A DNA stretch of 62,660 nucleotides, the filler included, from Sphacelaria rigidula (lineage: Eukaryota), in the NCBI GenBank assembly GCA_964200075.2. It is 8 parts of 8 records of this genome, joined end to end, with 100 filler letters (N's around TTAATTAATTAA, not from the genome) between each part and the next. Parts side by side here need not be neighbours in the genome. Positions count along the whole stretch, not along the records: positions 1 to 7,746 come from CAXNAA020013591.1; 7 more parts are not named here. One strand, written 5' to 3'. Each line of letters opens with the position of its first letter. The first letter of the stretch is position 1. Positions 1 through 59,777 of this stretch are shown piece by piece. The position numbers were made by a program, and so were the translations under genes. The notes under the pieces were generated by a model. It was not told where the DNA came from, made no database searches, and saw only the letters and a list, made by a program, of their open reading frames with translations.

Positions 1-332
1 GCGTAAAAATGCTTTGTGCGGTATCTCACCGACCAGACCGCCGAATTCCTCGAATGGGGTACTGTACGGTAGCTGCATGCACAGGACGTGTGCTCAAGTA
101 AAAAACAAGAGTTGCTTGTTAGGAACGCTAGAGCATCCACTCTGAATCTGAAACTACGTTCTGAATCTCACGAATATAGTGTTGCTCGCGGAGGGATATT
201 TTGAGCGTTTTCGGCATGTGGTGATACATCTTTCAATGGCGCCCGCGAAGATAGAACTGCCCACCATACTAATTCCAATACATTTTCCAATCTACGTGTT
301 GAAAATCAATATATATATATACAATGCTGCAC

Positions 333-725
333 CAATATGCATTGTGACCGTCCGTTCCTTCGTGTATTGTTCGCTCAATATATATTGGACGCACTGGCGC
401 ACGACATATTGAGGCGGCAACGTATATTGGCGCTTCGGGTGTTGAGTATATTGAACCATCAATGTATATTGACCTCGTGTGGCAGCCAATATATTACTCG
501 ACCAATATATGTTGGTATCTTACCACACCAATATATTACTCGTGCAATATATATTGAGGTGGCGCGTGTCGTGATATATTGTTTGGTCGATATATATTGC
601 ATGTCGCGAGACTTGACATATTGATGGCACAATATATATTGACCCTCTCTCCTACCATCATATTGCTCGCCCACTATATATTGGCCACCCGACGCGTCGA
701 TGTATTTGGCGGGCAATATATATTA
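333..725. repeat. Periodic 42-43 bp dual-palindrome array with variable spacers (9 full units plus a terminal repeat)
   Basis: CAATATATATTG-like 12-mers start at 333, 376, 418, 460, 503, 545, 588, 630, 672 and 714. Each is followed by a mostly 14-15 nt GC-rich variable segment, a CAATATATTG-like 10-mer and a 6-nt variable segment. Confidence 0.9.
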
Positions 726-1034
726 CATATTGTATTGTCCAGGGTGTGGAATTTTTGCACTCTAGATCTGTTTCATGCTTTATGCTCTGCAAGAATCTTG
801 ACACTCTGGAAAACCCCCAACCCTACTGTAGTATATATGTAGTGAATACTTGTATATACTCTTGAGGATATTTGTGGATATAGTTATTTTGAGGGGGGGG
901 CGATTGGCCACAAGTGGAGCCTTAGCCGAAAGTAAGGATAATAATAAGATAATTAAAGTCAATCCAAGATTCTGACAAAAAGTTGAAATGCCATGGTAGC
1001 TCGCGCCCAGGTGTCGTGGTCCGACAGCCGCCAT

Positions 1035-4687: not shown

Positions 4688-5125
4688 CGGGGGGGGATGC
4701 TCATGATTCTGCATGCCGTGGTCATGAGACCATCGACCTCGCATCCCTTCAAAGCCTGGATGGAGCGCGCCAGATTTTCGCCGGATCGGACTCGCAATTC
4801 AACACCAATCACCAAGCGCGAAGCGCCGTGATGTGTTTGGCGAGTCGCATGAAGGGTGAGCTGCATCCTGCTAAGATTGTTCGGCCCGAAAGCATACTGA
4901 TTATCTTGCAAATGGATGATAGCCTCGAGTAAGTTGCTTCATTTTCGGGCATCGTCGTCTCCAGAAACAGCCACGGGTTACACACTGCCTTATGGGCGTC
5001 TCACCATTTAAACACTGCGGAGTACGACCAACCCCCTTTGTGTAAATTGTCCGCCCGGCACAATATGATGCAGCCCAACCACCATCATGGTTACGCCAAG
5101 AAAAAGCAAGCGAGGAGAAAAACAA
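4688..5125 (+). repeat. High-copy interspersed repeat family A
   Basis: Aligns by eye over about 430 bp with 37463-37890, including the shared run CGAGTCGCATGAAGGGTGAGCTGCATCCTGCTA. Confidence 0.85.
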
Positions 5126-7509
5126 ACCGTTGACGACTAATGCCGAAGTAGCCCCCCCTCAAACGTGCACCGGAGACCGTCCGATACACCGGCTGCGATC
5201 CCATTGTTGGGCTCGTTTGTAGCAATATCGCCCAAATGAGAGGCGTGTAGCATTCCGAAATCAGCTAGAACGCCCAAATGAGTCGCGTCGTGCAGCACGA
5301 AACCAGCTCTAACGGCATTTATGAACATCGCCTCCGTGCAGGTTTTTGATCGGTTCGGGGGGGGGCTATCTCGGCTGCAGTCTAACCCGGTTGCCTAGCC
5401 CACGGAGTGAGTGATGTGCTCTAGATACAGCGTCGTCGCCGACGGACGCCAATCGTTTAAAGGGAAAGGGCGCAGTAACCTTTGAATTTTCTTCGTCGAT
5501 TTTACGACATAACTGCAGATACGTAGTCACAACATGAACAACTTTCAAGTACCATTGCGGTATGCTCGGGTGTCCATCAATTTGAGACCTCTGGGCGACA
5601 AACAACAAAAACTCCATGCGGTATCAATGATGGTGTAGTTTGGCAGGTTCGAGTAAAGAAATAACGCTTACATCAGCCGCAATCTTTTCCTACGACTGGG
5701 TATGAGTATGCTTCTTCGCATACGCCGGCATTTTTTCTTTTTCTTCATTTTCCCTTTTCATTTCGTAGTCTACCCTGTTACTGTTCTGCCCCACCTCTCC
5801 TGTTTTCTTATTTTTTTCCCTAGCGAGTGTTCCAGTTTTGTTTTGTCTCGGGGCACGTCTAATCATGTGGTCACGGCTGGATCCTTGGGGGTCAGTCAGT
5901 GCGACAGTCATCACCGTATCCAGCGATACAGAATACTCTCGCGGTGTAATCTCAGCCTGCTCTTCGTCGCGCGTAGTCGGAGTGATCAATCACTACGGTC
6001 ACTCATAAACCATCCCATCGGAAGGAGGGAGGATATATATCGGAGCTCACAGGTGTGCTGTACAACGCCACAGTTGTGTGCTCGGATTATGGCAAGATGA
6101 ATCGTCGCCAGGCCACCGACATGTCGCTGCAGGTCAACACGGAGACAATTCCGGGTGCTCCTTACTGCTTCAAGCACCGTATCGAACTGGCTTTTCTCAG
6201 GCAGCATTTTCATTACCCCCCCTGCCCCCCTCCTTTCGTGCGATGGCTCAGGTGCCGGTCAAGGGGTGGCAGGGTGGACGATGTACCTAGAACAGAGTGA
6301 TGCTACGGTAGAGGTGCACAACTTTATTCTGACGTCAGAATCGTCAGGAGCCCCTTATCTCATCCAAAACACAGCTCATGGAATGTGTGAGAGTACGCCA
6401 GGATAACTATTCCAATGTGCTGGAGATGTCCCGAATGAATCTCCAACCGGTGATGCCCTGGCCCATATTCTTGTGCATTAACTAGAATCGTTAGGAGCCC
6501 CTGAACCAGAAAACATTTTCCGCAAAAGGTGCACCCCTACCGTAACATTGCTCAACACGACACGGTACCACTCGCATACTACTTGGGCAACGTCCTACGA
6601 AGGTACGTGATGCTACGTATGGAAACATTCTTTGATTTCTCTTCATAGGACACAAAGATGTACGAGAAATATCGAACTAGAAAAAAGGGGGGGGAAGACA
6701 CGGTCTTCTGCCATCGGAACGGGTTTTTACGTACAATGAATAGCATTCAGTATCTATCATAACTACAGTATACAGTGGGTGGTATAGAATCCCGCATACA
6801 TGGCCAGGGAGAAGAACTCATCAACTCCACCAAAAATGCCGACGAAAGTTGTTAGCTCACTACATACAATGCAGCACGGTGAAGCACGATACAACAGTGA
6901 CGGCGGTAGCGAGCACAAGAGCCAAAACTTTTCACAAAATAACATTGTTGCTACGAAGCTGCTGGGGCCGTCTACTACAGGAACACGACGTCGCGAGCAA
7001 CGGACGAACGCTGGCATTGATCGGCATACATACATGGGTTTCGAAAAATGCCGCATTCGTCTCAGCTCGAGAGCTATTGGCAGGCCGCTTAATTCAAATC
7101 GATACTTGTTTGCTTTTTTTTTAATTCCCTCGGGCAACGATTCTTTGCTTGTTTGGACACTTGCATACAAGTTCTTCTATTTCTCTGTTGAAACACAGAA
7201 GCAGGAAAAAAAACTAAGACAAAAAAAACGCCAATGATTGGTATCTCAGAACGACCCTAAAGTTCCATAGTACAAACAGCACTATACGATCCGTCATTGG
7301 CTAGAACGCACCCCTGCTACCGCTGCCAGAAGGAGACCCGCTGCCTCTCCCGCCATTGATCGCCGTGCCGCCTCCGAACCCCGGGAACTGTTTTCGGAGA
7401 AGCTCCTCCTCGATTGCACTTTCGTTGTCCGGCTCCCTTCCGAAAAACTAATCCACGATCGAAAAGAGGAGCCCGACGAGGGTTGGGAGAGGGGAGGGAT
7501 GTCCAGTGG

Positions 7510-7746: not shown

Positions 7747-7846
7747 NNNNNNNNNNNNNNNNNNNNNNNNNNNNNNNNNNNNNNNNNNNNTTAATTAATT
7801 AANNNNNNNNNNNNNNNNNNNNNNNNNNNNNNNNNNNNNNNNNNNN
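7747..7846. other. Artificial scaffold linker
   Basis: N44-TTAATTAATTAA-N44, with stop codons in all six frames. Confidence 0.98.
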
Positions 7847-18779: not shown

Positions 18780-19010
18780 TAACCCTAACCCTAACCCCGA
18801 CCCAAGGCGCACGAGACCCTCGGGTGAGGAGGGTGCATAGATGCCTCTAGGCAACGTGTGCGTTGGCAGACCTCGAATCGACGCCGCAGGCGCCGATCTC
18901 GACACAAACACGTTCTGGACGAGCTGGGTCCACTGCTCACCTGCCCCAAACCATACATTTTCTCAGAACTTTCTTCAGTCTAAAATCGAGTAGTCATCCC
19001 TGTCAACCAT
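18780..19010 (+). repeat. Arm of the telomere-repeat-capped element
   Basis: TAACCCTAACCCTAACCCCGACCCAAGGCG..GACGAGCTGGGTCCACTGCTCACCTGCCCCAAACC matches 49850-50098 (minus) and 61290-61445 (minus). Confidence 0.75.
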
Positions 19011-26318: not shown

Positions 26319-28716
26319 CTGCTCAGCATTGCGGGGCGGAAGCGGTTCAGGACGGTATTATGGTAAAATTATGTCGCTACCGTATATATATATATATATA
26401 TATTTACATGGGTGGAATCGGACGATAGGAAAGTGAAAAGAGGAACAGGAAAGGACAAGACAGATTTTGCGAAAGGGCATTTTTCTTCACTCACCCTAGA
26501 TGCAGGATGGGGCAACAAACCGAGGAGAGAAAACAGTCGTTCTACGAAGGGCCCGCTCCAAAATCCAGCCCAAAACTGCCACGCAAAAAATGGTCATACA
26601 CCGCCTAGTGTTTGGTTTCAGGCTGCATGGAACATATATGGACCACATTGGCGAGAACGAACCCAAGCATCGGAACTCTCAGCTGCTCGTTGTAGTCGGC
26701 TTTCTCCGAGTCGTTTTGCATGTAGATTTAATAAGAACAGAAACGATTCATTTTCATTTTCCCCACCGACTGAAGTTGCCGCGTGCATGGTTCTCAACGA
26801 ATGTTGAAAGCTCGGCGGACACTATTTACGCTTTACACACGACCACAAGTGGGCCATTTTTTTCACCCCACCATACTCAAATGCCGGATAGACAACTTTG
26901 TTTTCAACCTGCCTGACGGAAACTGAACAGTACTTTTGGTGAGCCACAAAACCCTAGACGACTCGGATCGAGAAATTGATAAAAGGTTCAGAGGACAAGA
27001 ACAAACATGATTCGTGGGGAGTCTCACCAAGTGCGCGGAGCCCATAGCCTCCCGGAACGTCGTGAGTTGGCTGTGGCCAACGACGGTCGACATGGACATG
27101 ACGATCCACACCACTGACTGCTCGCGACAACAAAAAACGGAGAAAACGGCAACGACAACCACAACCACAACCATTTTTTTCGTGCGGGTTAAGGGTTGAG
27201 TAAGAACAGTAGCGAGAAGAGTCCCCTGTTGGGGCCAGGTCGGGTCAGTGGGGAAATATTTTACCCTCGAAGAGATCAGTTGTACGGTAACGACGGAACA
27301 CGCCGTCCACCGACGCGCAGCAGACGGGACACCGACGGCGCACTCATGGGTGAGAGACGGCGGGCGAAGCTCGTCACGGCGGTGGACAAGATGATGAATT
27401 TGATACTACCCTTAAGGTATCCAGTCGGAAAAATCTCGCCCGTGACAAAAGTGGTATGATCCAAAAAGCTGCAGTAAAAGAGAAGCAGAAGGAAGAACAA
27501 GAAACAAATACTTGGGGAAGAAATGAGGATCGGTGAACGCTGGTACGAACTATGGCGGGATTTACTACACGATTCGAGAACCATCTGAACAAAAGCGGTT
27601 TCTTTACATACCTCTGTGCACGGCGGAGTTGTCAACGAACCCATGTAGTGCGAGTAAGCAGGGGATTGGGGCAGCATCTCGTAGGCGCTGAAGAAGAAAC
27701 TTGAGTTGGCCATCTCTTGCCCCGTCACCATGACGTCCCACAAGTCGTGGATCTACGGACGCGCGAAATACACGAGAGGCGAGAGACAGGTGGCCGTCCT
27801 TCATCACGTTTAGTCAAAACATCGGATAGTCAAGATGATAAAGTGAGCTTCGGGTGAACAGCAATTACCCGAACATGAGCGACGCCACGCACTCGCGTGC
27901 TTTTTGCGTATGCAGCACTCACGTATCATTGTTAATCGTGCGTCGCATGCCGTGCCGTACGGTGTGGTACTGTGAGAACTTGTGCGGAGCTGCGGTTGAA
28001 TCTCCTCATGGGCCTTCTCGTACGTTCTTTTCTACGAAAAGGTGCTTGATAGGGGAAATATTCTTCTCCCGCTAGCGGCAAGGATAACACAGCGTTCGTT
28101 ACTCATCTTTTCAGGTGTGTTTCGAGTTCCCAAGCCCAGCATTCTCCACAGAACACGTTCTCTTGGTACCTGTGAACTCTGCTACGTGCTACGAAGTCAC
28201 CGACCACTTTGTCCGATCCACCACCATTTCTACGACTTCATTCGTCCCCGATCAATTTTTCTTCTATCGCTGTTGGTGGAAACGGAAATTCGAACGGGGA
28301 CTTTTGGTTGATGCAAGTGTTCCGAATTCTCCCTCATGGTGTCGTCAAAGTGTGAAGGAGATTTCCTGACGTACACCTTCGGGAACATTCCTCTCATATG
28401 TGGTGATACCCACACTAGCAAGCAAAATACTTAGTTTTTTTCAGGTTGTCCCCAAGGAAGCAGGGAAAATACATGACACTCACGTTATCGTTCTCCCCGT
28501 GTGTGTTTTCGTCCAGGAGGACTCCGACCACAAGGAGCTCGTCATCGGTGCCTTCTTTGACGTGAACCATGTGCACTTCAGCGTCGTGACTTGCCGTGCC
28601 CATCTATTCCCGGCGCATGAAGCAAAAAAAAGACCAAGGGAAAACAAGTCAAGCAAGGGAAATAATTATGTTTAGAAAATGGATTGATGTTGTGATAGAT
28701 GGATGTTGTGATAGAT

Positions 28717-40334: not shown

Positions 40335-41190
40335 CTAGTGGTCGCACAGCAAAACGTTCCTAAGCGTTGCGTACTTTCGTCCAGGCTGCCATGTACATTG
40401 AGCCCCCTCCTTTACAACTCGGGACGATTCGGATACATCTTGGGCAACCTGCGTCCACGATGTCGCTTGTATTCCGAAGTACGAGCAGTAGTCCACGATA
40501 CAGTATTTTAGACGTATTGCTGGTCGGCCTGCCGTCGTGTTCCCCTCAACCATGTCTACACGCATGATGATGTTTGGGATGTTGGGGAGGCGTTCATTGT
40601 GTATGCGTACAACACGGCCGGCGTGTAGGAGGTTTCGCTTCATCACTGTGGCCTTAATGCAGTTGTAGCCGGTTCGTTCGAGGACCTCGTGGTATGGCAG
40701 CCTGGGGTAGTCAGGAGCCCTGCGGCTTGAGGTATGCTTATAAAGGCACCTCAGCGGGTATTCTCGATGGGCCTCCCGTAACGCGCCAGCATTTCGTGTG
40801 CGATCGTCCAGGTCACGAAGCGGCACAGCACTACCTTGATCACTTCAGTCTTGAGGACACCAACCGTGGTGGCGAGGGCGATGTATGGGTTGTCGTATAC
40901 CGCTCTGCTGTACAAGCACGGGCAGGCCTCGCCAATGCGGCTGTGAATCTCGGGAGTGACATCACCGATGCCGCTGATTGTTCCGCCGAGGTACAGAAAT
41001 GACTCAACCTTTCTGTATATTTGGCCCGCTGCCTCCACGTAGATCGTATCCGTCTTCTTTTCCGCGAAGACGAGACCGAATGTTGGACATACTTCGACGA
41101 TGGCCATCATTTTTGCCAGGCTTACCCGCGACCGCGAAGCGATGACAGCGTCGTCGGCGTATAGCATAGCCCAGAGCACCGCCGCACCGC
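40335..41190 (-). mobile_element. 5'-truncated non-LTR retrotransposon (RTE-like) reverse transcriptase remnant
   Basis: MLYADDAVIASRS..FGLVFAEKKT..VESFLYLGGTIS..EIHSRI, then frameshifted C-terminal LLHAGRVVRIHNERLP..GRP. Confidence 0.9.
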
Positions 41191-44100
41191 GCGATCTGAG
41201 GTAATCTTTCAAACCGGCATCATTTTCATTCGGAAAGAGTGTGCATGATCCGGATGGACTACCCTCGCGGTCTAAGGCTGATGCCGGTTCAACAGATTAC
41301 CTACTCGGAGGGTTTGTATTTACGCCGCAGGATGACACACGTCGATAAATTGCACCCTGTGGGGCACGTCTACAGGATTCAGGGAAACTGTGCAGTGTTT
41401 CTCGCAGGGATTTGACTGTAGGGTGTTTTTTTGCGCCACACAGGACGCTTCACAGGATTTCAGGGAAACTGTACAGTGTTTCTCGCGGGAATTTGGTTGT
41501 AGGGTATGATTTTGCGCACATACAATATGCTCGACCTAGAGCGACCTATTTGCAGGTGGGGTATGCAAAGAAGAGCGTACAGGTCGCAAACGCCTCCAGA
41601 GCCAACCCACGATAAATCCACTATCAATTCGAAATGCTGCACACACGAAACAACGGTCAGGTGTCCTTCGCAGCTGTCCACAGTAGGGCAGTAAGGAAAG
41701 CATCTTGTCGTAGGGCAGAAGAAAACACGCCTGCGGCGATGAGCTTCCTGCTCGATATTGACGAGAAAACAGTCGTCTTGTGTTCCTGGTCAGCCAAGCA
41801 CCGCGCATGCATGCGTGATTGTATGGATGCGCTGACAACACACGGACTGTATACAGTATGCATCAGCTGCTTGCCATCGAGAATATCTCCATATCATACT
41901 GTTGTTGCACTGCTGTTGTACAAGACACCACGCTGTCTGTACACCGTGTCTGTGTACTGTGCAGGCTATCCAAGTGGCAGCACGAGTAGCGGGAGTGGTC
42001 CTGTATCGCGTCACATGCCAACAGTTCAGAGCACCATAGCCCCTGTACAGTTGTACCCCTGTCAGTTGTACCCCTGTACTGCTGTTGCCTGTTGTTCGTC
42101 GTACATAGTGTACAGTCCGCACAGCAAACAGCAGGTAACGGTACTTGTGGTACGATGATGGTGCGACTTCGCAAGTTTCCCTACTTGCGGGTATACGACC
42201 GTGTAGAGTACTCAGAGCATCCAAATGTCGTTATCTGCCCGGATACACCGTGTTCCTGCGCATGGGCTGGCGGGTGTGAACGATTGTCATTACGCAACGC
42301 ACACTCTCATGACAGGATTACACTCAAACACCCAGCTAATTTCATGTTGCCCATGCCGCAGCAACCATCAACCATCAACATATTTTTGTGCTTCCAAGAA
42401 ATAGCCCTGAAGAAGTGCCCCGAGAAAAAACGATTGATTCCACGATTCCCGGTAGTTTGTAGCAAATAAATTATCGCCGCCTACGTTTGCAGCATCCTGC
42501 CCCACAAGCAGAGGAATATGATCGGTGTTACAGCCCTGCTGTACGCTACTCCTGCGGAGTACGCCTGTTGTGTCGTGCGCTCAAGAGCATTTGAAAATGG
42601 GTGTGTCGTGGAATTGGTTCTGGAGGTGTTCGCGACCTATACGCTCTTATTTGCATACCCCACCTGCAAATGGGTCGCGCCGTTCACCTTACAGCGCGGG
42701 CGCAGTAGTGGCGAAAAACAGTTCATTTGTGACAGGGGTGGGTAAGACGTTAGTTGCCGAGAGAAGAACGCACTGAGCTTTGAACCCTCTCTAACTTGTC
42801 GTGAACGTGAACATGAATTTTGGGTTTCTAATGGATATATCAAGCAATATAACTTCAGAAACGAAAACTTGAGCACCCTCATCTTGTAATTTTGAAATGT
42901 TCGCCTGTTGGCAACTTGGGAGGAAAAGTGCTCTCTCGGGTGTAAATTACCTGTGGAGTTTGACTTTGTGGGACCCCAGAAATTTTGTACTTCAAAGTAC
43001 TTGTACATTATATAGTATAGATGATGATCCGAGATCCATGCAAGTCACCCATAACAGTAACACTTTTGTTCAGCTATACCGCACAACCCAATACACTGTC
43101 TGTAGCAACGAGCACGAGTTGGGCACAGGGATCTAGATACACACTGCCGTGGTTAGGTATGAGGTATTTTTTGTTGGTAAATGGAAACTTGATCATCTTC
43201 TTTCATGGTCGCGCGGCATCGCATGGCGACGGATCGAACCGCCATATGCACGCGGGGTATAGATAGCACGTACTCACCGCATATAGAGATGATGCATGGG
43301 CGCAGGCATCGTCAGTACAAAGCTGCACGTTGTTCAAGTCCTTTTCACGTCGCAGTGGAGGCAGAGCACATATATAGTCCTGCGCTGTCTGTACTGTACC
43401 TTCCCTGGTTCGAAGCACAGGCGTGTGGGCATAAACTTGTGAGCAGTCTGTGGGATTTCTATTCAGCAAAAACTGTTGAGACTTCATTCATCCTTCAGCC
43501 CAATTGATCCATGAACTGGGGGGCAAGAGGATGAAGCGTTTTCATAGTTTTTTTGCATCTCGGATCCCACCCGCTGATGACGGCTCAGTATGCGGGATCT
43601 GCACAGCTGATGCTGTTCGCAATGATTCTCTTTTGCCTAACTTCTGGAAGAATTGGCGAGCAAAGTGAGGATTTATTTCGAGCTTTTTCTGTTCAAATCC
43701 CAAGTCTGCCAGTGTGCATGGGATTCGTACAGCAGGAGAGGTTGTTTGAAATGGATCTTTTTTATATCCAATTTGATTGGGCGAAAAAAGGGTCCATTTT
43801 GAATAGCTTCTTCTGCTGTTCGAAATAAAAAAAATTATCGCCCAATTAAAGTGGGCGTTAAAAGGATCTGTTTTGAATAGCTTCTCCTGATGTCCAAGAT
43901 AAAATTCCTTGTTGCCAGATTTGAATCGGGAAAAAAAGGATTTATCTCGGACAGTAGAAGAAGCTATTCGAAATGAATATAGAGGGCCTCTCCACAGGGT
44001 TGTTTGCAGGGTTTCGACAAAAACGCTATGCAAAATGCTGGTAGAGGTACTAGGGTTTGCGAATGCAGTGCAGGATTTCTCACAAAAGACGGTAAAGAAC

Positions 44101-47073: not shown

Positions 47074-49409
47074 CGTCCATAGCGCCACCGCTACTGCCTT
47101 GAACAAAAATCCGGCTGTGTCACCCTCTTCATCTCTTCATTGCGGTAAGTATGATACCATATGTGCGACTATTGGGTGCGTATTGCGGAAGGCATTTGCT
47201 GATGATACAATTTGGGGTGATCACCGTGAAACAGCCTGTATGAAAAATAATGTCGGCACGCAGTGCTCTCTACACACCGTTGAAACGTTCATGGTGTGTT
47301 GGCTGTTTTGTCTCAAGTCGACGGAATAAGGCGCTTCCCCAACCCATCATTTCTGTGCTGTAGTTCTCGCCGTGCTGTTGGGCATCTAAACACTCTACGA
47401 CGATCACGGTGCGATGTGCACTGGAGAGTGCGTACTGCTGCATGCCGTGTTCCGGGCTGCACAGAATTGGGGTGGGATCAAGGTGCTGTCGGAACAGAGG
47501 AAGGTTGAAACAATCGCCACATGACGGCTGTACAGCTGTCTGTTGAGTCTTCTCTGGTACTTCAATTATGGTCGGGTGCTGTGATCGGGGAAGACACGCC
47601 AGGGGGGTGCGTGCAGGTTGGGAAAAACAAACTGAGCCAGCACGGAGCTGCTGTATCCTCGTTTATTGTCGGTAGCAGCTGTCTGTGTCGCTGCGGCGCA
47701 ATGTGTGGACCAATCACAGCTGCTTTTTGACTTATATCTACTACTGATATATCTCATCTGATTGAAGAAAGTTCGCCGCATTTTGGTGTATTTAAAGACT
47801 CTGATTGGTCGAGAAACTTTGCAACTCATAAATCTTGTCCCTATCTGTGGGCCCAGTGCCGCGCTCGAAGTGCAGTGCCCAGGGTGGTGTTTTAGGGCGA
47901 TACGGACTAGATACCCCGTTCATCAGGGGGACGTTATTGTGTCATGTGTATATTTATCTGAATATTTGAATGAATACGAAAAAATTCTTCACAAAAACGA
48001 TCGAGATCGTGTTTCCCTCCTATACTGCACGGACCTCAGTCTAGCACTTTCTGCGGATGGCCTCTTTTCGTTTTTTTTCCGCATAACATTTTCCATGACC
48101 TCTCGAAAGTGCTAGCGTCGATAGTTTTGGCAGAATAAGCAGACCGTGCTCAAATAACAGTGCCCAAGTTGGTGTTGTGGGGGCGATACGGAGTAAAGAC
48201 CCCGTTTATCAGGAGGATGTTATTAACCGTGCATGTTCCAACAAACATATTTTTCCGACTCTAGCGCAGTGAATTGGTAGAATTTTGCAAAAATAATCTC
48301 TTTTGAGTCTTCACTTATATGATCGGGATTGAGTCGGTCCACCGTACATACCAAAAAGCTAGAACCTGGAGTTGCACTTTCGCAGGGCCCCCGACGATTG
48401 GTCACGCCCGTAAGTCACTCAATATTGATCGCAGATATTTTTTCTTTCAATATTTGTCAACATGAATAAAATATCTCCAGATGCCCATTTCTTGGCATCC
48501 AACAGTCACTGTGATGAGCGGTGGCAAGCGAAACGAATTTGGAAAATCTTCGAGAAACGAAGAGATTACGAATTCTGCAAACTTCTTGCCCTGACTACTG
48601 TATTTCACCAACACTACCAACGGGAACACCGTTTCGACTAGACTTCTACTTACTATGCTAGCACGATTTTTGAAGAGTTCACTTATCTTAAAAATAATGT
48701 GGGATCGCTAACAAGTAAAACCGTGCTAGCATAATAAGTTGAAGCCTAGTTTCGACAGACCTCTTTCACCCGGACCGGCATCAAGTTGTCACGAAGCAGA
48801 TATTGGGGCACATCTGGACGCATTGTATTTGCGCTGTCGACATCATGCAACATTTGCTTCACACTCCGGGTGGTTCCCGGGTAAAAGTCATCATGCATCG
48901 AGAATTGGGCAAGGCTTCCGGTATTGAGGTTCAGCTCGAAATGATGCCGTTGCAGGCATCCTGGGCTTGGCCAGAGGTATTGGACAGTTCTCGGGTGCAC
49001 AATGCGCACGAATTACGATGGGATGATTGATTCCTTGCTGCTCTGAGTGCTCTGTCATGACACCAAGACCTATTGCGCGAGACGAGACAGATTGTACAAA
49101 ATAGGGTGTTTCAGTCGTTGTGAGATGGCTTCGGGGAAGACATACCATCTCAACACGAAATCACAGATCACAAAATACAAAATACAAAATAGGGGAGGCG
49201 ACCTGTAGCTTTAGGCGAAATATTATTGGTGATTTTTTCAAACAAACTAACACGAATACTGGCTGATACGCCCACATATACAGGTGTGGATTGTCGTCCA
49301 GAAAAGATGGGATGACAACATAACATACATCCGAAAAACAGGGACGACAATGATCGTGTCGACGAGGGCTGATTCACAAAGGTCAGAAACGAATGTACTA
49401 AAGATGAGG

Positions 49410-50098
49410 CTAACCCTAACCCTAACCCCGACCAGGCATATGAGAACCAACCCTCGGGTGGGGAGGGGGCAGAGTGTTCTCTAGGCCAAGTGTGGCGTTG
49501 GCAGACCTCAAATCGGCGGCGTCGATTTTGACGAAAACGCGTTCTGCGCAAGTGAGGGGCACTTGGGACTGTAAGCCCCACGAAAGATCCAAATTTCTGT
49601 GATCAGACTTGAATCAAGTGAAATTATTCCTTGAGGAGTCATTTTACCAAGTGGTAATATCCACTGGGATAGCTACCCTATGTGTACTCCGTGGCGCTCG
49701 CAAGCGTTCTAGAGTCATCAGGTACGTTGCCAGTCCCGAAAATTCCGGATATCTCTGAAAAAACTAAAACCTTGTGATAACCTGGTTCGCGAGAACGCGC
49801 TGCAACATTCCGCTTCGATTTTTCGATCAACTCAGTACACCTATAGCTTCGGGCGAAAATCTATGGTTGGCGGGGTGACTACTTGATTTTAGACTGGAGA
49901 AAGTTCCAAGAATTTTTATGGTTTGGGGCAGGTGAGCAGTGGACCGAGCTCGTCTAGAAGGTTTTTTTGTCCAAAATAAGGGCGCCTGCGGCATCGCTTT
50001 GACGGCAGCCAAAGCACACTTTGCCTAAGGGAACCTTTGCACCTTTCTTGCCCGAGGGTCTCGTACGCCTTGGGTCGTGGTTAGAGTTAGGGTTAGGG
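49410..50098. mobile_element. Element with diverged inverted arms, capped by (CCCTAA)n and (TTAGGG)n
   Basis: Left end CTAACCCTAACCCTAACCCCGACCAGGC..CCCTCGGG; right end CCCGAGGGTCTCGTACGCCTTGGGTCGTGGTTAGAGTTAGGGTTAGGG. Confidence 0.65.
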
Positions 50099-51015
50099 CC
50101 ACAAGAGGAAGGCCAACACGGCAGTTTTTGATTTTCGAATTAGATTTAGTATTTTCACCTTCCTTCTGCGGGGTGTGCCTTAATTTTTTATCACGAGAGA
50201 TTCAGCGGTCCCTTCCCTCGTCGACCGTGAAGACGAATTTAGGGTACCCACGACGTAGTGGCTCTCCACTCTTGGGGGATGATGTGAGAAAAATCCCAGA
50301 TCGTGTGTCTGTACCGAGATTCGCACCCACGACTCCACCGCGAGAAGCAGTGTTACTCCTTTTCGATCATATGGGGACGATGTTTCGTAAGGTTGGGTGT
50401 CAAGGTAATCCGCACCTCGCTAGTGATGACGCCAAAACTTGAAGGATGTGTAGATTGGTGAACGGCAAGGTATCACAGTCACAGCAGTAGCCGCGCAAGG
50501 CGCTCTGGGTCCGGTCTGCATTTGAAGCGGTGGATACCAGCAGTGATTGCATTTTGTTTCAGACACGTCCTGTCTGATGACGATTATACTGGCCGGGTCG
50601 GCCCGCAGGCCGCAGTGGATCGTGTGCCGGCCTCATTATGAATCTTCGCCCAGTTATGGATGACCGTTCGCAGAAACCCGGCAAAGAAGTATCGTTCATG
50701 CTCCGTAGTATATTAGAGTGTTGGGGGCTGAAGGTTTCCGCTCCAAGTCGCTCGACGACAGGTCAAGGTTAAGCTCCTCACGCGCGACCACTGCGTTCTG
50801 CCACGGACCCTTGCTGGCGTGTCTGGACGCAGGTACAAATAGTACCAGTCCCAGCGGATGCCGCTTGCTGACCGCCGGGTAGCCGGCACGGTGCTTCTAG
50901 TGGTGTTATTCTAGCGATATCAACTTACAGAGCACTGTTGGGGGCGGGGGGGTTGCACGTTGATATGTTGGCGATTGCCCCACCTACACTTCACCCTTAT
51001 CTTATAGATTTTTTC

Positions 51016-51901
51016 AAGGGCAGCGTACATATACTCAACACTCAGTATTTTCGAAGAGTCACACTGTAATTACTCAATTTCTGAGTAGAGTATTTGAGGC
51101 CGTACTCAATCTACTCAAAATTTGTGTAGGGTATTTGAAGCCGTACTCAAAGTGGAGAGCGACTATGTCGTGGGTACACAAAATTCGACTTAACGGTCGA
51201 CGAGGGAAAGGGATNNNNNNNNNNCACCCACATACACCGAAAGGTGTAGACTGGTGCCCAGAATAAATGGGACGACAACACAACACACACACACTCAATC
51301 CGGTCGCCCCAGTGGCTCAGTTAGTAACCTGGAATCTTTCTGACGGTTTGGTCGTGGGTTCAAATCTCGGAGAGATCTGAGATTTTTCTCACACCATGCC
51401 CAACAGTGGAAACCGACTAAGTCGTGTACACACCATATTTGACTTGACGGTCGACGAGGGAAAAGGGACTGTGTACTCTTCTCCCGATAAAAAACAAAGG
51501 CAAGCACCGCAGAAGGAAGGCGGAGTACTAAAAATAAACAACAAACAAAAGAAGCTCCTGCGTTCGCCGTCCTCCTGTGCGACCCCGGCTGGTGCGCCCG
51601 CCACATATAACGAAGGGTGTAGACCAGCGTCCAGAATAGATGGGATGACAACACACACACAACACACTCAACCCACTCAAAAGTTGAGTAGAGTATTAAG
51701 GTCACATCCATGTGATACTCTATACTTGAGTATTACTGAGAGTACTTACTCAATATTTGAGTAGAGTAGTGGAGGTCGTACTCAATCTACTTCGATTTCG
51801 AGTAGAATATTTGAGGTCGTACTCAACCTACTCAAAATTTGAGTAGAGTAAATACTCGGGTATTTTACTCGAGTAATCGAAAGTACATACTTTACTCCCT
51901 T
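51016..51901. mobile_element. Mutator-like non-autonomous element with nested SINEs
   Basis: Termini AAGGG / CCCTT, perfect 10-bp TSD AGATTTTTTC (51006-51015 and 51902-51911), and TACTCAA-rich arms. Confidence 0.75.
51300..51667 (+). mobile_element. Full-length tRNA-derived SINE (a partial copy precedes it at about 51154-51295)
   Basis: CCGGTCGCCCCAGTGGCTCAGTTAG (A box) .. GGTTCAAATC (B box) .. body .. CA-rich tail. Confidence 0.82.
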
Positions 51902-54817
51902 AGATTTTTTCACGATCTCACTGCGTAAGTTTATATGTGGAAATGCACCACACCCCGGGCAAGAGATTTTTACAGTCAGTATACAATGTCAAAAGGTATA
52001 CTGCGTACAGTATAGAATCTATTGCTTACTGCAATTTGCGCAATACGCGTACGTGTAGCCGGTACTGCACGCAGTACACTTTGTCATTGCGGCTGTCCTA
52101 CCCTACAGCTTCACCCAAAATACAAAAGACAGCCATTTTAACGGCGGAGGCGGCCTTTCGCTCCTGCGTGCGCCACCAAGGGTAACCGCACGCTTAGCTG
52201 TAACACGGACAGCTAAACAAAATGTGCCGCAACGAAGGGTGATTACCCTCGTGGACGTGGGTCCCAGCACAAGCGTCTGCGCTCATGTTGTGGCGAAGAG
52301 CGCAAGATGGCGAGGAATCAGCACAGCACAGGGATAACGTAATGATGTGACAAGCTGCGGTTTGCTATGCCATCCTGCACCCTATCGCTGATCGGTGAGG
52401 AGGCACAGTTGCCCAACGCGCCACTGCTGCGCTTGGTACGCAGTGTAAAACACGGACTGCAAGCAGTGTATTCGATGTGTATTTTTTTAAAACCGATGCG
52501 TTCAGGGTGAGGCTCGCATCTAGAGAACTCTAACTCTGCACCTAGTTCGCCTTGTTTCTTGAATAGCGGATCCTGACATAATTTCAGTAGCCAGCGCTTG
52601 CGATGTGTTCTGTGACGGATCTCGTGCGTGATGCGGCTTTCTCCACCGTGGGGTGTAGCCCGTGAAGGTTGCTGTTGATGCTGACAATGCCCATCCCTCT
52701 TCCCACGATAATGTCTTTCCTGCGCACAAGATAATTGAACGTGTCGACCATGACTCAATCTAGTGGAATGTCCACGTCTCTGAGTGAAATGCCTCCATAT
52801 TATCGAAAAGGAATAACACTGGAAGGTTTCGAGGTTACCACCTGAGCCACCGGGGCGACCAGCCGTTATTACTACATTTGGATACCGAAAACAATTTCAG
52901 ACTTTTTGGGCTGCGTTCAGATTTCTCCGGACACTAAGCGAGTTGATATTTTCGCCGAAGCTTCAATTCTGGAGGAACCCGAACAAGTCGGAATGCACCG
53001 CAGCACTTTAGGTGGCTGCCCTGTGTGCACAACGTGGTGCTCGCAAGCGTTCAAGCCTCAGGCAAAGTAGTTGGCCTCAGGCAACTGCTAAGGCATGCCT
53101 TACCCCGTATGCATGCGTGAAATGCTCTAGTTTATAGCTCGGGATGCCTGAGACTTGCCATAGACTTGCCATAGACAATCACTCCGGTTACCCGAATAAT
53201 TTGAGTGGGTGTTGTTGTAAGCTTGGTTTATTGCTATTGTTTTTGTTGCATAGTGTGTTTGCCTTTATGAAATAAGGCATCTCAGGCATAAAACACTCAT
53301 CAGGCAACCCCTTTTCGAAAAGAGGCATTAAAGCTCCCCGATATACCGATTTATTGGAGTTGGCGTCGTCATTCGTGTGCCTTACTTTCATTCTTTCTTG
53401 TAGTATACGTGTTTGCCTCGCCCAAACGAGGCATCTCAGGCGCCATACCCCCTCTCAGGCAACCCCTTTCTGAAAAGGGGCTCTAAGGCAAAAATGATCT
53501 GTAAATACTTACGTTTGTATGTATACATCATGGGGCTTGCGCGCATCTTATTATCTCACCATATTAATATCATGCATCAAGAATGTGTTTATGTCTCTCT
53601 CGATATTTGCAACGTGAGAGTCAGGGACGCATGTACGATACGCTTGCTGAAAACCATCATTGCAATTTCAAAACAGCGACCAGAACGCGCTTTATGCTCG
53701 AACAAGGCAGTCACCGTGAACGCCCCGTACCAAGTTACATTACATGAAACGTTACAACATCGTACGCAGCGTTCAATTGCTCCAACACGGTCAAACTGTA
53801 TCGTTACAAATGACAACACGCATCACATGTAAGCGTTCTGAAATACGTCATCGTGACGTGGCATGCCGTATTATTTTTCAAGACGTCATAAGACTGACGT
53901 GACCTGACGTATTATAACCAAGACGTCGCGTTTGTGACGTGACATGTAACGTTTAACTTTGAGTGCCCTGTAAAGAGCAGCTTCACCTTCAGGTGGGCGA
54001 CATTGGGCGATTTTTAGATGAACGTCGTGAATCGTTCCGTCAATCAGAGCGATCAAAGTAGTTACCCCGACCCTCTTTAGACCTGTAGCTCTACCTCAAA
54101 CTTTACTGGAAACACGCAGGGTTGATCTGGTATCCATTCGCTGACGACTGGTGAACCTGCACACCCCGCCCTGCCCTCGCCGTTAAAAACGTTGAAACCC
54201 CTCGACCGCTATGCAGTGACTGTTCCGAAACAACGCTGGAAGTCAAAAGAGTTAACGTGTGCCTATTCTGGATCCAGAATCATTTTTACTTGGAACAAAA
54301 TTGAAAAAAATGCCTATTTTGCAATTGGACCACCTCCGATGGTCGAAGGCTTGAATCGCGGAAATCAAGCGTGGATCCTGGCACCGACATGGTGCCCAAA
54401 TTGAGACTATCTCAGAAAATCCACTGTCACCTGCACCCGGCCCTGTTGTTTCGCGGTACCCACATGGGCATTATCACACAAAAGGCAGCCAACTTTGGGG
54501 CAGCTTCGACATCAAATTGTGTCACGCTGAGCCCAAGCAAATTCGGAAATCTCCGAAGTCCGCAAAGGGCAGATTTCGATGTGAAGGTTCAACCAAGAAC
54601 TTTAGCATCTTGACACCATTACGGTGCTACCTTCCAGAAAAAGTTGGTGCTGCCTTTCTTGGATATCGTAGATTGCACGGCGAGAGCGCATCCACGTGGA
54701 AAAGTATGCCTCTGCTGTGGGGCTTAGAGGTATAGGCGTGAAACGGTACTCATGATCATGCATGCCATAGTCATAGGACCATTGACCTCGCATCCCTACA
54801 AAGCCGGGACGGAGCAC

Positions 54818-55446: not shown

Positions 55447-58400
55447 GTGCGGATCACGGTAGATAACGCCATGTTCTAAGATAGCCCCCCTGCTTTCCCC
55501 CTCCCTCCCTAACCCTTTTGGGACCGGACTCCCAGATATATGGTGTTTGCACGCAAGGGCCTTTTGGTGAATCGGCATCATTTTTACTTGAAAATGAGTG
55601 ACGAAGATACCGAGTATCCAAAAGACCCCTGCGTGCAAACACCATGTTTTTGGGAGTCCGGTCCTATAAGGGTCAACAAGACATGATTTCAGGGAAATAA
55701 AAAATCGCTTGGATTTGGGTGGTGCAGAAGCCATGTGATCTGTACCGGGTACAATTGAGTCGCGCCCAACGAGGTAACTGAGCCCTGTGGTAAGTAGGCG
55801 GGGTCAGAAAGTGCGGTGTTCCTGTCGCGTCTGGTGCCGGTGTTGTTTTCTCCGACAAGCCTGCGATGTCCGAGCTCAGAGCCGTTTCGGAGAGCTACCG
55901 TAGACGAAGCGATGTCGACGAATGAGTGCTGCACAATATAGTCTCTCTAATGGTGTCCCCAATGTTTGTTGTTCACTCTCGCTGGTCGTATTGTGTCACG
56001 CTCCTTGTGCGTGTGTGCGTGTGTGTGTTTTCGCGTGTTTGTTGAGTTTCGCTTTTCCCCCACGTGGACGTGGTGTTGCGGACTGCTGTGCGTTTTAATC
56101 GCATTTAGCCGTTTCTTTTTTCGTGTCTCTGTCCAGTAACTCCTGCTGCCTCTCTTGTCTCGTATTGCCCGGCGGCCGTTGGTGCATTCAGTTTATCACG
56201 GTGTCGGACCTGAGGACGCAGATCGCGGGCTACCTGTACGGCGTGTCTCCACCGGACAACCCCAGAGTAAAGGAGATTCGATGCATCGTCGTTGTACCGC
56301 AGGTGACTCCTCGGAAATATATGTATTGAGAGTCTTTTTTGCCGTAACGATCCGTTGTCGTCGTTCGTGTTTGTTGTTGTAGTCTGGAAGCGTGTTCCTC
56401 TGCCTCTGGGCTTTGTGTCAGCATTAACTGTGTTACTATATTATGCTCGAAGCTGTTTTTCGTTGTTGCGCCCATATGCTGTTGTCCTTGGTTGGGTTCT
56501 CGTCGTCAGCTCCGTCCTCATCATGTTTGAATATAAACTTCCTCTGTACCATAAGTAAATGTACCTCAATTTTTACGGGCCCTTGACGATGTCCGTTTTT
56601 TTTTTTTTTCCAATGAACTCTACGGTGTTTTTTTGGTAAAGAAAATGTGTTTTGAATTTGCAGCTGGTGGTTGAACCATGCCGCCGAACAGCTGCAAAAA
56701 AAGTAGTCGGCCCAAAAATGGCCGTTTTTGCCCCTGCCCCTTTCCGAGGGGGAAAAAAGGTGTCGATTTTTTTGTTTGTTTGAATTTTTTTAATCGCCAC
56801 CGCCTTCACTGGGACTTACCGCCAGGAAGTCCCATGCGATTGGGGAAAAGAAAAAACACGACATTTTTTTCCCCCTCGGAAACGAGCAGAAAACGGCCAT
56901 TTTCGGGCCGACTACTTTTTTTGCAGTCGTTCGGCGGCATGATTCAAGCACGAGCTGCAAATTTTGAACACATTTTCTTCACCCAAAAAAACACCGTGGA
57001 GTTCAGCGTGTCCCCACACCCATATTCACAACAGCCGGTTGTAAAGATGAGATTGACCGCAAAAATGAAGCTCCAGCCCAAAAATAGTGCTTCCTCAACA
57101 CTTGGCCGATTTTTCCGCTTCGTTTTTCCCCTCGTTAGTTGCAAGTTCATGAAAGAAAAAAACGGACATCGTCAACCCGGGGACAGCGAGAGTAGGTCAT
57201 CTGTTGAATCGGCATCAGTTTCACTTGAGAAAAGTATGCATGATGCAGATAGACTACCCTCGCGGTCCAAGGGTCAAGGGCTCGTACAAATTAAGGTACC
57301 TTTACTTCTGGGACAAAGTATACATATACGTGGGCCGCACGTGCACTCACCGGTGAGCCGAAATATCGCAACAATGTTTTGGGAACAATTCAACGCAGGT
57401 GGGAAACCATCAGTCAGTGACCCTGCCGCACCAGCTGCCGGATCACGACTACCTGGACGGGCTGGAGCCGCTGGGTTGGCTTCACACGCAGCCCAACGAG
57501 CTTCCACAGCTTCCTCCCAACGACGTTGTGGTGCACTCGAGGTTTGAAATGATGATGCCGTCTGATTGGGTAGATTCGAAGCAAGTGTGTCGTGTTGGTA
57601 GGGCTGTGTTGCGATGCACGCTCTGAAAGCTGGCTGTCGCTTCTTGAGCTCTACGAGGAGGTTCTCCTGCCTGATTTTCTCCTGTTTTGCGAATCGATGG
57701 GAACGTTCGTCCGGATATGTAGACTGTACATGCTCCTCCTTGCTCATGACCTGCTGTTTCCTTTTACGAGTATCATCGTGCAGTTTCGGCTTGGTTAAGG
57801 CGGGAAAGCGGTGTTCTTTCTACCTTTCTGTACACATTTTGTTGCCCTCCCCCCCCCCCCCCCCCCCGCCCCCCCCCCCACAACCGAAATCCCAGCCCCT
57901 TTTTGGGGGTTCGTCTGGGTCAGCGCCNNNNNNNNNNTTCGCTTTGTTACGGGCGGAAACGCGGGTTTCTTCTTCCTTTTCGTTCCCCTTTTGTTGCCCC
58001 CCCCCCCCCCCCCCCGCTGAGACACTCATGAGACAACGTAACCCGTGGCTATTTCTGGGATGGTCACTGTGACCAGACCAGAAATTGAAGCAACTCAATC
58101 GAGGCTGTCTCCCGTATGCGAGATATTCAATGGATAGTGCGCCTCGGGTTGAACAATCTTAGTAGGGTGTTGATCACCCCGCATGCGACTCGCCGAACAC
58201 ATGACGGTGCTTCGTGCTTGGTTTATTGCGAGCCTGTTCCGGTAAAAACCCGGCGTGTTCCGTCCCGGCTTCGCAGGGACGCGAGATCAATGGTCTCATG
58301 ACTACAGCATGCAAGGTACACAAGTTCACCCCTCCCCCCTGTATTCTTTTGGCTCATCTCTAATAACTATTCCTCCCGTTATTGTTTTTTGTTTCATTCT

Positions 58401-59777
58401 TTTTGGTGCATGATAGGATAATGGCCGACAATAAGACGTGGGACGGGGACAAAACTATCGTGATCACGTGCAGCTTCACTCCTGGGTCGTGCAGCCTCAC
58501 GGCCTACAAGCTGACCCCTCAAGGCTTCGAATGGGGGAAAGCACACAGGGATGCAACCGCTGGAGCGCAGGGCTACGCTCCGACGCACTACGAGAAGGTT
58601 CGCCCCGCTGGCTGGTTGGCTGATTCAATGTCGTCCACGATGATACTTTGTGCTCGAATTGAGATCGTGCACCAGCTGGTCGTATTATTTTCATGACTAT
58701 AACACTGTTTTTTTTCCCTGATTTGTAATGCACACCTGCATGGGGATATTCGAGTGAGATGCGGGATGTAATTATGGAAAAGGTTCGCGAGACGCATGTT
58801 CACAGCAAACATATTGTCGCAGGATACAGTGTACATGTGCGCAGTAGTTCGATGTGAAGTGTCGTACCCCACTTACACACCCTCCTGGGTTGTGAAGGCG
58901 AGAAAAAATGCGTGGGAGCTACCTTGCTGGCAAACATGCACGAGTCAAATATCAACGTTTGCGGTATCCTGGTTTTATCCGGTCTAGGGGTTCATGATAC
59001 GGGACCGGGACAGCATGTGAGATGCTCACTCGAGTATCGTGCGGCGAAGTGCCGATCGTTGATTTTCATGCGCTTGTGTGGCATGTATGCCTTCCTCTGC
59101 ATATTTGCCGGTAACAGGTGCAAATGCTGCTGTCAGACCGCTTCCTTGGGTTCTTCATGGTGCCGGACGACGACCGTTGGAACTACAACTTCATGGGGGT
59201 GAACCACTCCGTCGGCATGAAGTACAGCCTCAAGCTTGACAACCCCAAGGTGCCCAATCGTTTCACTCATGCCCCCGTTGTTGTCGTGGCTCGGTGAATC
59301 GCACAGTGGTTGCTGGGTGGCATTCCTAGGTTTGTCCTATCTTGACCTCCAGGTGCCCGTTGGATCGCGCGACCGTTCCATTTGTGGAGTAGAAGCATGC
59401 AATGTGGCGCTTGTGCGCGACTGCTTTTGTTGTTGTTCTCCGTGCCGTACAAGCTGGGAAGTCGGCTCGCAACACGAAAGACGAATACCTGCGTTGAAAG
59501 CGTACATTTTCTGACGGTTACACGAGATCGGCTGCAGGTGATGCCCGGATGCGTGAATCATTCGTGTTTTTCCCTGCTCTCGGATAGGCCCTTCGTGCCC
59601 TCACTCTCTGTTCCATTTTTTGTTGTTGTTGTTGTTATTGTTTCGTTTTTCCTGTGACGTGCTTTTTCACAGGGATTCTACCACGAGCTGCACAGGCCAT
59701 CGCACTTCCTCAATTTCACATCCATGGAGGATGTGGAGCACGCGGCGGAGGCTGACCACGAGGATTTCTTCAATTAA
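55330..59777 (+). CDS. PRP8: Pre-mRNA-processing-splicing factor 8, last six exons (Jab1/MPN and PROCT region)
   Basis: Exons 55330-55446, 56192-56302, 57399-57541, 58417-58597, 59118-59249 and 59673-59777 splice in frame with GT-AG introns. Peptides are near-identical to known PRP8: [56 protein letters not shown] and [14 protein letters not shown]. Confidence 0.98.
55513..55672. mobile_element. piggyBac-like MITE in a PRP8 intron
   Basis: TIRs of about 50 bp, CCCTTTTGGGACCGGACTCCCA..TGGTGTTTGCACGCA / TGCGTGCAAACACCA..TGGGAGTCCGGTCCTATAAGGG, flanked by CTAA and TCAA (degenerate TTAA). Confidence 0.75.
56192..56302 (+). CDS. PRP8: PRP8 exon ([24 protein letters not shown])
   Basis: CAG acceptor, GTGACT donor, 37 codons. 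Confidence 0.96.
56576..57181. mobile_element. Foldback element in a PRP8 intron
   Basis: Outer TTGACGATGTCCG / CGGACATCGTCAA; inner arms of about 170 bp, e.g. AAAAGTAGTCGGCCC / GGGCCGACTACTTTT. Confidence 0.8.
57399..57541 (+). CDS. PRP8: PRP8 exon ([24 protein letters not shown])
   Basis: CAG acceptor, GTTTGA donor, phase 2 matching the next exon. Confidence 0.95.
58417..58597 (+). CDS. PRP8: PRP8 exon ([19 protein letters not shown])
   Basis: TAG acceptor, GTTCGC donor. Confidence 0.96.
59118..59249 (+). CDS. PRP8: PRP8 exon ([18 protein letters not shown])
   Basis: CAG acceptor, GTGCCC donor, 44 codons. Confidence 0.96.
59673..59777 (+). CDS. PRP8: PRP8 last exon ([20 protein letters not shown])
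   Basis: CAG acceptor, TAA stop at 59775-59777. Confidence 0.96.
   Translation, partial: GFYHELHRPSHFLNFTSMEDVEHAAEADHEDFFN

Follow-up and report, generated by a model that had tools for sequence, protein, structure and literature searches.

A phased array of alternating palindrome-like motifs in an abundant repeat of Sphacelaria rigidula

Layout and conservation of the palindrome array

Close to the start of the 62,660-base stretch of Sphacelaria rigidula DNA analysed here (the window, at its full length), positions 333–725 hold an array of two AT-rich, palindrome-like motifs that alternate with two GC-rich spacers, and it is this array, together with the abundant repeat in which it lies, that we describe. 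All units stand head to tail in one direction, so that the array is directional and forms no foldback. Each unit consists, in order, of a 12-nt AT motif close to CAATATATATTG, spacer A, a 10-nt motif and spacer B. Read directly, the 12-mers start at 333, 376, 418, 460, 503, 545, 588, 630, 672 and 714, at intervals of 43, 42, 42, 43, 42, 43, 42, 42 and 42 nt (mean 42.3). The GC-rich spacer A measures 14 nt in six units and 15 nt in three, and spacer B is exactly 6 nt in all nine. The 10-mers mostly end in ATATTG, and this 3′ half is the only well-kept part of the motif. Alternatively, the conserved block can be read as a 28-nt dyad (10-mer, 6 nt and 12-mer) with the 14–15-nt spacers in between, a reading matched by the repeat family D1 (eight copies of 29 nt). 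The initial annotation had proposed a strict 42–43-bp array at 333–725, built from two palindromes and two spacers, and our in-register layout agrees with it; its nine units with lengths within 1 nt of each other are borne out by the 42- and 43-nt intervals, and the eight spacer A strings that it quoted all proved correct on direct reading, to which the spacer A of unit 333, TGACCGTCCGTTCCT, adds a ninth.

The periodicity stands out from the rest of the window. Autocorrelation of positions 300–760 over lags 5–134 rises above 0.36 only at lag 42 (0.432) and lag 127 (0.41). Eight sites in the entire window match CAATATATATTG with no more than one mismatch, and all eight fall in 376–725, against a shuffle expectation of 0.09 ± 0.32 and with eight reached in none of 100 shuffles. 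Of the 27 copies of the hexamer ATATTG in the window, 13 lie within 382–727, successive copies there being alternately 24/25 and 18 nt apart. Clusters of half-sites elsewhere in the window, such as that at 48420–48448, are not arrays. Tandem Repeats Finder, run with a minimum score of 30, returned 69 rows, none of them on the array.

Conservation within the array is limited to the two AT-rich motifs and to the lengths of the spacers. The 12-mers share a mean pairwise identity of 0.854 (z of 28 against shuffles, GC 0.23) and the 10-mers one of 0.669 (z of 14, GC 0.27). By contrast, the identity among spacers A (0.356; GC 0.64) is that of shuffled sequence (0.342 ± 0.015, z of 0.9). Spacer B is intermediate in this respect, with an identity of 0.421 (z of 3.5, GC 0.63) and with CTCG or TTCG at its start in four units. 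Of the 29 CpG dinucleotides counted, 24 fall in spacers, with 17 in spacer A and 7 in spacer B, compared with 2 and 3 in the two motifs. Traces of internal duplication are also present: the units at 460 and 503 have a 29-nt block in common at 90% (family D1), and part of spacer A in unit 503 is 81% like a shifted 10-mer plus spacer B (family D2). Because the spacers lack detectable common ancestry and yet their lengths are unchanged, the array does not behave as a uniformly decaying minisatellite. The earlier view that it is unlike an ordinary minisatellite is thus upheld, both by spacer A identity at the shuffled level and by the blindness of Tandem Repeats Finder to the array.

Other copies, edges and surroundings of the repeat

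All evidence across copies comes from the alignment of contigs from public sequencing runs to positions 1–2038. Thirteen runs were listed, 12 of which contain part of this stretch; they belong to five studies and are labelled organism A, organism B, algae metagenome and protist metagenome. Contigs of four runs (X1, X4, X8 and X12) were aligned at a minimum likeness of 88%. In X1, the summed contig depth over the array bins at 341–748 ranges from 55,333 to 244,773, as against 76.1 on the adjoining bins at 817–952, which places the array at ~700–3,200 times the adjoining single-copy DNA; the X1 single-copy contigs at 727–1057 and 1267–1585 show no differences from the window, at depths of 74–76. 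In X4, the array bins reach 25,865–112,900, as against one single-copy contig at a depth of 23.2. Taken as an indication only, these summed depths point to hundreds to thousands of copies.

Spacer content and order are common to the copies. An X12 contig of 419 nt, from organism B, aligns over 398–748 (351 nt) with 31 differences and no gaps. Pieces that span several units were also obtained from X1 (526–664, 15 differences; 546–673, 14 differences), X4 (529–663, 15 differences) and X8 (519–697, 20 differences). These alignments cross several units, spacers included, at 88–92% identity and are mostly gap-free, and self-matches between units inside the array are only 62–64% alike. As sharing of the motifs alone would give ~62–64%, identities of 88–92% imply that the other copies share these spacers and their order. 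The array with its ordered spacers thus recurs in many genome copies and in a second labelled organism. The same conclusion applies at the level of single letters: at the spacer places 584, 611 and 652, a letter other than that of the window is present in 100, 97 and 75 distinct contigs of X1 and in 90, 92 and 73 of X4. The initial annotation had treated the spacers as variable, which they are between the units of the array, but not between copies. It had also suggested that a recurrence of identical, identically ordered spacers at many loci, inside an element bounded by terminal inverted repeats, would make the array one of ordinary subterminal repeats; the ordered spacers do recur in two runs and in organism B, but terminal inverted repeats were not shown. 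Contigs of X8 cover 519–735 at depths of 2–23, with none on the single-copy flank; X8 is RNA only by guess, and RNA and DNA are indistinguishable here.

The copy in the window is a decayed one. Among the differences listed, 95–99% of the X1 summed depth departs from the window at 11 well-covered array places (456, 464, 503, 511, 532, 543, 544, 584, 611, 652 and 674), and the same places recur in X4. Four of the 11 lie in 12-mers, where the majority letter restores a perfect palindrome at 464, 511 and 674; at 503, the first base of its 12-mer, the change is C>A and does not restore the palindrome. Place 532 lies in a 10-mer, with T>C turning CAAT into CAAC, a form that units 376 and 588 show as GAC. 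The remaining six of the 11 places are in spacers. None of the eight insertion or deletion differences listed falls within the array. It is the departure from the family majority at these 11 places that marks the window copy as decayed.

Both edges of the repeat can be placed approximately (Table 1). On the left, CAATATATATAT at 307–318 is a degenerate 12-mer with two mismatches, 26 nt ahead of the first 12-mer, and one contig joins the tail of a SINE-like (short interspersed element-like) retroposon, at place 1284 and through the letters TGAG, directly onto place 301. The left edge is thus probably located between 301 and 333, corresponding to an element of ~420–450 bp. On the right, matches of two organism B contigs (X12 records 10 and 11) end at 748 and 751 and continue into 62 and 81 unmatched letters, and the X1 summed depth falls from 104,780 (681–748) to 2,163 (749–816) and then to 76 (817–952); together, these contig ends and the drop in depth set the end of the repeat at ~748–751. 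The single-copy contig at 727–1057, identical to the window, crosses this edge. In total, three contigs show the repeat against unrelated sequence, namely X12 records 10 and 11 and the joint 1284/TGAG/301. The right-end 17-mer of the repeat has nothing better than a three-mismatch match in the rest of the window. Positions 301–343 match the reverse complement of 700–739 at ~74% with gaps, which the shared motifs alone may explain. Among ~1,460 position pairs tried for a target-site duplication, the two best candidates are both at chance level: an 8-mer with one mismatch (296–303 versus 744–751, for an element at 304–743) and a 5-mer (for an element at 333–755).

Table 1. Features at the start of the window, in positions of the whole stretch.
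Feature	Positions	Strand	Remarks
Palindrome array	333–725	+	Nine full units of 42 or 43 nt and a tenth 12-mer at 714–725
Probable left end of the repeat	301–332	+	Degenerate AT-rich motif and a short (TA)n run
Right terminal segment of the repeat	726–751	+	Edge at ~748–751
Separate adjoining high-copy repeat	184–316	.	Begins sharply at 184 and ends within the (TA)n run
More abundant repeat, cut by the window start	1–183	.	Contigs end at 183 (X4 records 17 and 18)

Other repeats crowd the neighbourhood. Contigs over the adjoining repeat (X1 records 1–2 and X4 records 19–20) match from 184/186 to 309/316, and beyond the match they continue into unmatched letters (149 and 66 in X4 record 19; 37 and 169 in X4 record 20). 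We take this repeat to be separate from the array element, to which it was not shown to belong. The repeat cut by the window start is more abundant, with X1 summed depths of 500,000–761,000 in bins 1–204. The SINE-like retroposon occupies 1021–1292; its other copies end at 1284–1292 and are followed by poly-A, its X1 summed depth reaches 3.5 million, and it contains a tRNA-like T-arm-type stretch near 1040–1075, for which ARAGORN made no tRNA call. A MITE-like element (after miniature inverted-repeat transposable elements) lies at 1584–1720, with a 39-nt inverted repeat at 90% around a 59-nt loop, inside second arms at 1558–1584 and 1731–1757; other copies of it are without the inner part (joints 1605 to 1682 and 1623 to 1682). 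Segments 1803–2038 and 4806–5007 are inverted copies with arms of 85–95 nt that are 75–88% complementary and bracket ~2.8 kb, and this repeat is the most abundant in the stretch, with X1 summed depths of up to 7.6 million. At 5221–5304, two copies of an unrelated 42-nt unit (71–79%) have the same period as the array and lack the palindrome motif.

As a whole, the window is eukaryotic nuclear DNA with few long open frames. It contains 228 stop-to-stop frames that reach 85 amino acids or more; when the 150 longest were compared with Pfam, a scan that intron-split genes could escape, the only matches were an exon of a eukaryotic-type carbonic anhydrase (Carb_anhydrase; 27279–27752, minus strand, E = 3.8e-06) and a Prp8 PROCT-domain exon (58367–58693, plus strand, E = 7.8e-15). 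A separate scan of 15 frames also gave the carbonic anhydrase, along with a weak reverse-transcriptase fragment at 40751–41212 (minus strand). No Nop, cas or nuclease domain was found among the 150 frames, in agreement with the first reading of this scaffold, in which no such gene was visible. An open frame of 139 amino acids over the array matches no Pfam family, and a comparison with a protein collection (lengths of 76–244 amino acids), in which further copies might appear as spurious proteins, returned no relatives, with none of five candidates scored. No tRNA was found on the array or elsewhere in the window, and Rfam gave no match at gathering thresholds over the whole window and none at E up to 1 over 200–1400. 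Interstitial TTAGGG-type telomere runs occur at 18780–18803 (TAACCC ×3), 49410–49428 (CTAACC ×3.2) and 50079–50098 (GGTTAG ×3.3). From 7747–7846 onwards, pairs of 44-N runs with 12 bases between them recur about every 7,845 bases (seven pairs) and look like masking rather than biology; three short N runs are located at 2039, 51215 and 57928.

Searches in other collections yielded no second array. A pattern requiring two 12-mers in array register had no match in viral contigs, metagenome contigs or prokaryote genome contigs, and a spacer-specific pattern, with CpG places left open, had none in metagenome contigs. A one-unit pattern matched 28 viral contigs, once each, with at most two near-12-mers per locus and no arrays; these matches are what chance produces in AT-rich DNA. 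A text search of the literature for the 12-mer did not find it.

A candidate docking array and competing explanations

That the segment belongs to a multicopy interspersed repeat with fixed spacers is very likely. With a probability of about 0.6, we further interpret the region from ~301/333 to 748/751 as a decayed copy of a ~420–450-bp, non-coding, high-copy repeat of an algal nuclear genome that is most likely a non-autonomous, MITE-like DNA transposon and carries a protein-docking array along almost its whole body. The features in common with transposons and MITEs are its short, non-coding nature, its many dispersed copies (with copy number only indicated), its defined edge at 748–751 and its different flanks. 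Under this scenario, the array would have formed once, in a master element, after which selection would have preserved the palindromes and the precise distances between them, leaving the spacer sequences to randomise. Motifs and spacing that are kept while spacers are free would point to a dimeric or oligomeric protein that binds cooperatively, and the palindromes would be putative docking sites for such a protein, assembling cooperatively along the element. With one 12-mer every 42.3 bp, or ~4.0 turns at 10.5 bp per turn, the 12-mers would lie on one face of the helix, and the 10-mers, centred 25–26 bp after the 12-mer centres (~2.4–2.5 turns), would lie roughly opposite. The best candidate for the protein would be a transposase or recombinase of the family, supplied in trans by an autonomous partner, with a host factor as second choice; its identity as the family transposase specifically is a tentative assignment, to which we give somewhat less than even odds. 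The binding-site or transposon-part reading preferred in the initial annotation is thus supported in part, as far as a dispersed, high-copy repeat with the same ordered spacers is concerned, but the terminal inverted repeats, target-site duplication and transposase that would complete it were not shown.

Several observations weigh against the docking interpretation. No terminal inverted repeat or target-site duplication was established at the repeat ends; the 8-mer duplication candidate conflicts with family contigs that match to 748 and 751, and the ~74% inverted match of the ends is weak, the family extending past 739. No transposase gene was found in the window, by the scan of 15 frames or among the 150 longest of 228 frames searched with Pfam, and no binding protein is known for the palindromes, whose role as binding sites is putative. 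The element is directional rather than symmetrical, which is unusual for a MITE, and self-BLAST of positions 1–1000 against the window produced no second copy. Two of the five majority-letter changes in motifs (503 C>A and 532 T>C) depart from the ideal palindrome. Finally, summed contig depth is not copy number, and the best-supported 15 of 249 joints leave room for tandem head-to-tail copies elsewhere.

Two alternatives explain the periodicity by tandem amplification. In one, the repeat contains a functionless old minisatellite: slippage in the master copy multiplied a 42-bp unit, which then decayed, and the conservation of the motifs is purely mutational, CpG-rich spacers mutating faster and slippage or conversion possibly homogenising (TA)n-like cores. 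The location of 24 of the 29 CpGs in spacers agrees with this scenario and the history of internal duplication is real (spacer B at z of 3.5, the 29-nt block shared by units 460 and 503 at 90%, and the 81% match of D2). Yet spacer A stands at chance (0.356 versus 0.342 ± 0.015) while the 12-mers keep an identity of 0.854, no single consensus unit was found by Tandem Repeats Finder, and spacer lengths are fixed in nine of nine units (6 nt for spacer B, 14–15 nt for spacer A), which neutral decay should presumably have altered; we regard a minisatellite origin as unlikely. In the other, for which the odds appear lower still, the array is a stray block of a satellite, a ~420-bp higher-order repeat of ten diverged 42-bp subunits that forms long tandem blocks elsewhere, such as at centromeres or in subtelomeric regions. 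The very high summed depth, the short and fragmented contigs and the position of the array just 333 bases from the window start would all suit a satellite, and one contig that returns from 644 to 364 with eight letters in between demonstrates that unit rearrangements exist. However, no joint from ~750 to ~301–333 is present among the best 15 of 249, three contigs abut unrelated sequence and, in the window, the array is a single block among other interspersed repeats.

The remaining alternatives retain a function for the motifs and assign it differently. The 12-mer and 10-mer are reminiscent of pseudopalindromes of the CAAT-N-ATTG type, to which homeodomain-leucine-zipper dimers bind, and the array could be a regulatory module of the host that was spread by a repeat or co-opted from one, with sites for a dimeric transcription factor in an enhancer, an insulator or a chromatin-organising element. 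Such a module would impose the same constraint on motifs and spacing as a docking array, and nothing links the sites to a transposase; but a very high copy number and a decayed copy fit a selfish repeat better, and no gene that it might serve is evident, the nearest recognisable coding pieces being far off, which leaves a host module about as improbable as a satellite. The initial annotation had also pointed to a resemblance to guide arrays of the CRISPR or TIGR type. Such an array would yield, by cleavage of its transcript at the palindromes, ~42-nt RNAs with spacers that base-pair with targets. The resemblance finds no support, and we consider a guide array highly improbable. CRISPR arrays have repeats of 25–36 nt, spacers of similar size that differ between loci, and cas genes. 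Read as a 28-nt repeat, the present array has spacers of 14–15 nt, half the repeat size, that are the same in many copies, and no cas domain was found in the frames scanned, so that a CRISPR identity was rejected. The general design of two alternating short repeats and two spacers is closer to that of TIGR arrays, which, according to PMC12045711, comprise 5–15 units with alternating 8–12-nt repeats, an adjacent Nop-domain Tas gene and a prokaryotic or viral origin; the 9–10 units of our array and its motifs of 12 and 10 nt are comparable. The same text gives TIGR spacers that are both ~9 nt (up to 12), 36-nt units and repeats of the form UG...CCA (box D/box C), whereas the spacers here are 14–15 and 6 nt, the units are 42–43 nt, and the repeats start with CA and end with TG, likewise on the minus strand because they are palindromic. 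Also speaking against guides are the lack of Nop, cas and nuclease domains in the 150 longest of 228 frames, the eukaryotic nuclear context (carbonic anhydrase and Prp8 PROCT exons) and algal run labels, spacers that are fixed across a high-copy family, two matches of spacer A elsewhere in the window as against 3.6 ± 1.7 for shuffled spacers, and the absence of the array pattern from the viral, metagenome and prokaryote collections. Predicted RNA folding of the array (z of −4.8 on the plus strand and −3.0 on the minus strand) is expected from self-complementary motifs and is no evidence of an RNA.

Two bolder variants share between them a very small probability. In one, the family would be transcribed and its palindromes would direct the cutting into ~42-nt phased RNAs, each with a fixed GC-rich segment of 14–15 nt, which would make it a transposon-borne, guide-like RNA array of a eukaryote that acts together with a protein encoded elsewhere; in the milder one, each 28-bp dyad would be a recombinase site and the element a row of ten recombination sites. 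Readings of the repeat as a long terminal repeat, as the 5′ monomer of a long interspersed element or as a SINE were rejected on informal inspection, considering that a repeat boundary lies at 183/184 and that neither TG...CA ends nor a tRNA-like head is present.

What has been identified is an abundant algal repeat, which is a known kind of element; new is an unclassified family with unusually regular palindromic sites, and not a new kind of system. Should the docking interpretation prove true, this would be an uncharacterised, very abundant algal repeat family with ten dyad sites in exact four-turn phase and free spacers between them, an unusually clean natural case of selection on site spacing, and it would predict cooperative assembly of a protein along the element. 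Such a family would also be of use for the repeat annotation of this genome, in which the array is missed by Tandem Repeats Finder, and may point to the DNA-binding specificity of a transposase. The finding opens no new class of RNA-guided system.

Comparison with known transposons

Clusters of subterminal motifs are familiar from the transposons En/Spm and Ac, and the array repeat resembles transposons with subterminal arrays in being high-copy and non-coding. It differs in that no terminal inverted repeats, target-site duplication or transposase were found for it. The closest parallel for docking is Hermes, a hAT transposon: according to PMC10368747, the BED domains of its transposase recognise short subterminal repeats, binding is cooperative where two of them form a palindrome, exact phasing is crucial, and the motifs are 4 nt long, irregularly spaced and arranged differently at the two ends. 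The array repeat is like Hermes in presenting many short, partly palindromic motifs within a few hundred bp of an edge with unconserved sequence between them, and differs from it in having two longer, alternating motifs and a strict 42–43-bp period that runs through nearly the whole element.

A second comparison is offered by the window itself. The segment at 51015–51902 is a hAT-like non-autonomous transposon, flanked on each side by GATTTTTT, a perfect 8-bp target duplication (51007–51014 and 51903–51910). Its ends, CAAGGG... and ...CCCTTA, presumably fit the hAT end motif YARNG. Close to both ends, it contains arrays of a 41-nt periodic TACTC/GAGTA palindrome (51066–51150 and 51666–51867), and between them lies a tRNA-like, SINE-type insert with duplicated parts (51151–51665). 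These 41-nt palindrome arrays establish that arrays of such a period occur in transposons of the Sphacelaria rigidula genome. The array repeat and this transposon have in common that they are short, non-coding and abundant, with a periodic array of ~41–42 nt that includes palindromes. By contrast, the transposon conserves its whole 41-nt unit (76–84% matches in Tandem Repeats Finder) and has an evident 8-bp target-site duplication. Taken together, the Hermes precedent and the design of the element at 51015–51902 favour the interpretation of the array repeat as a non-autonomous DNA transposon with a putative transposase-docking array.

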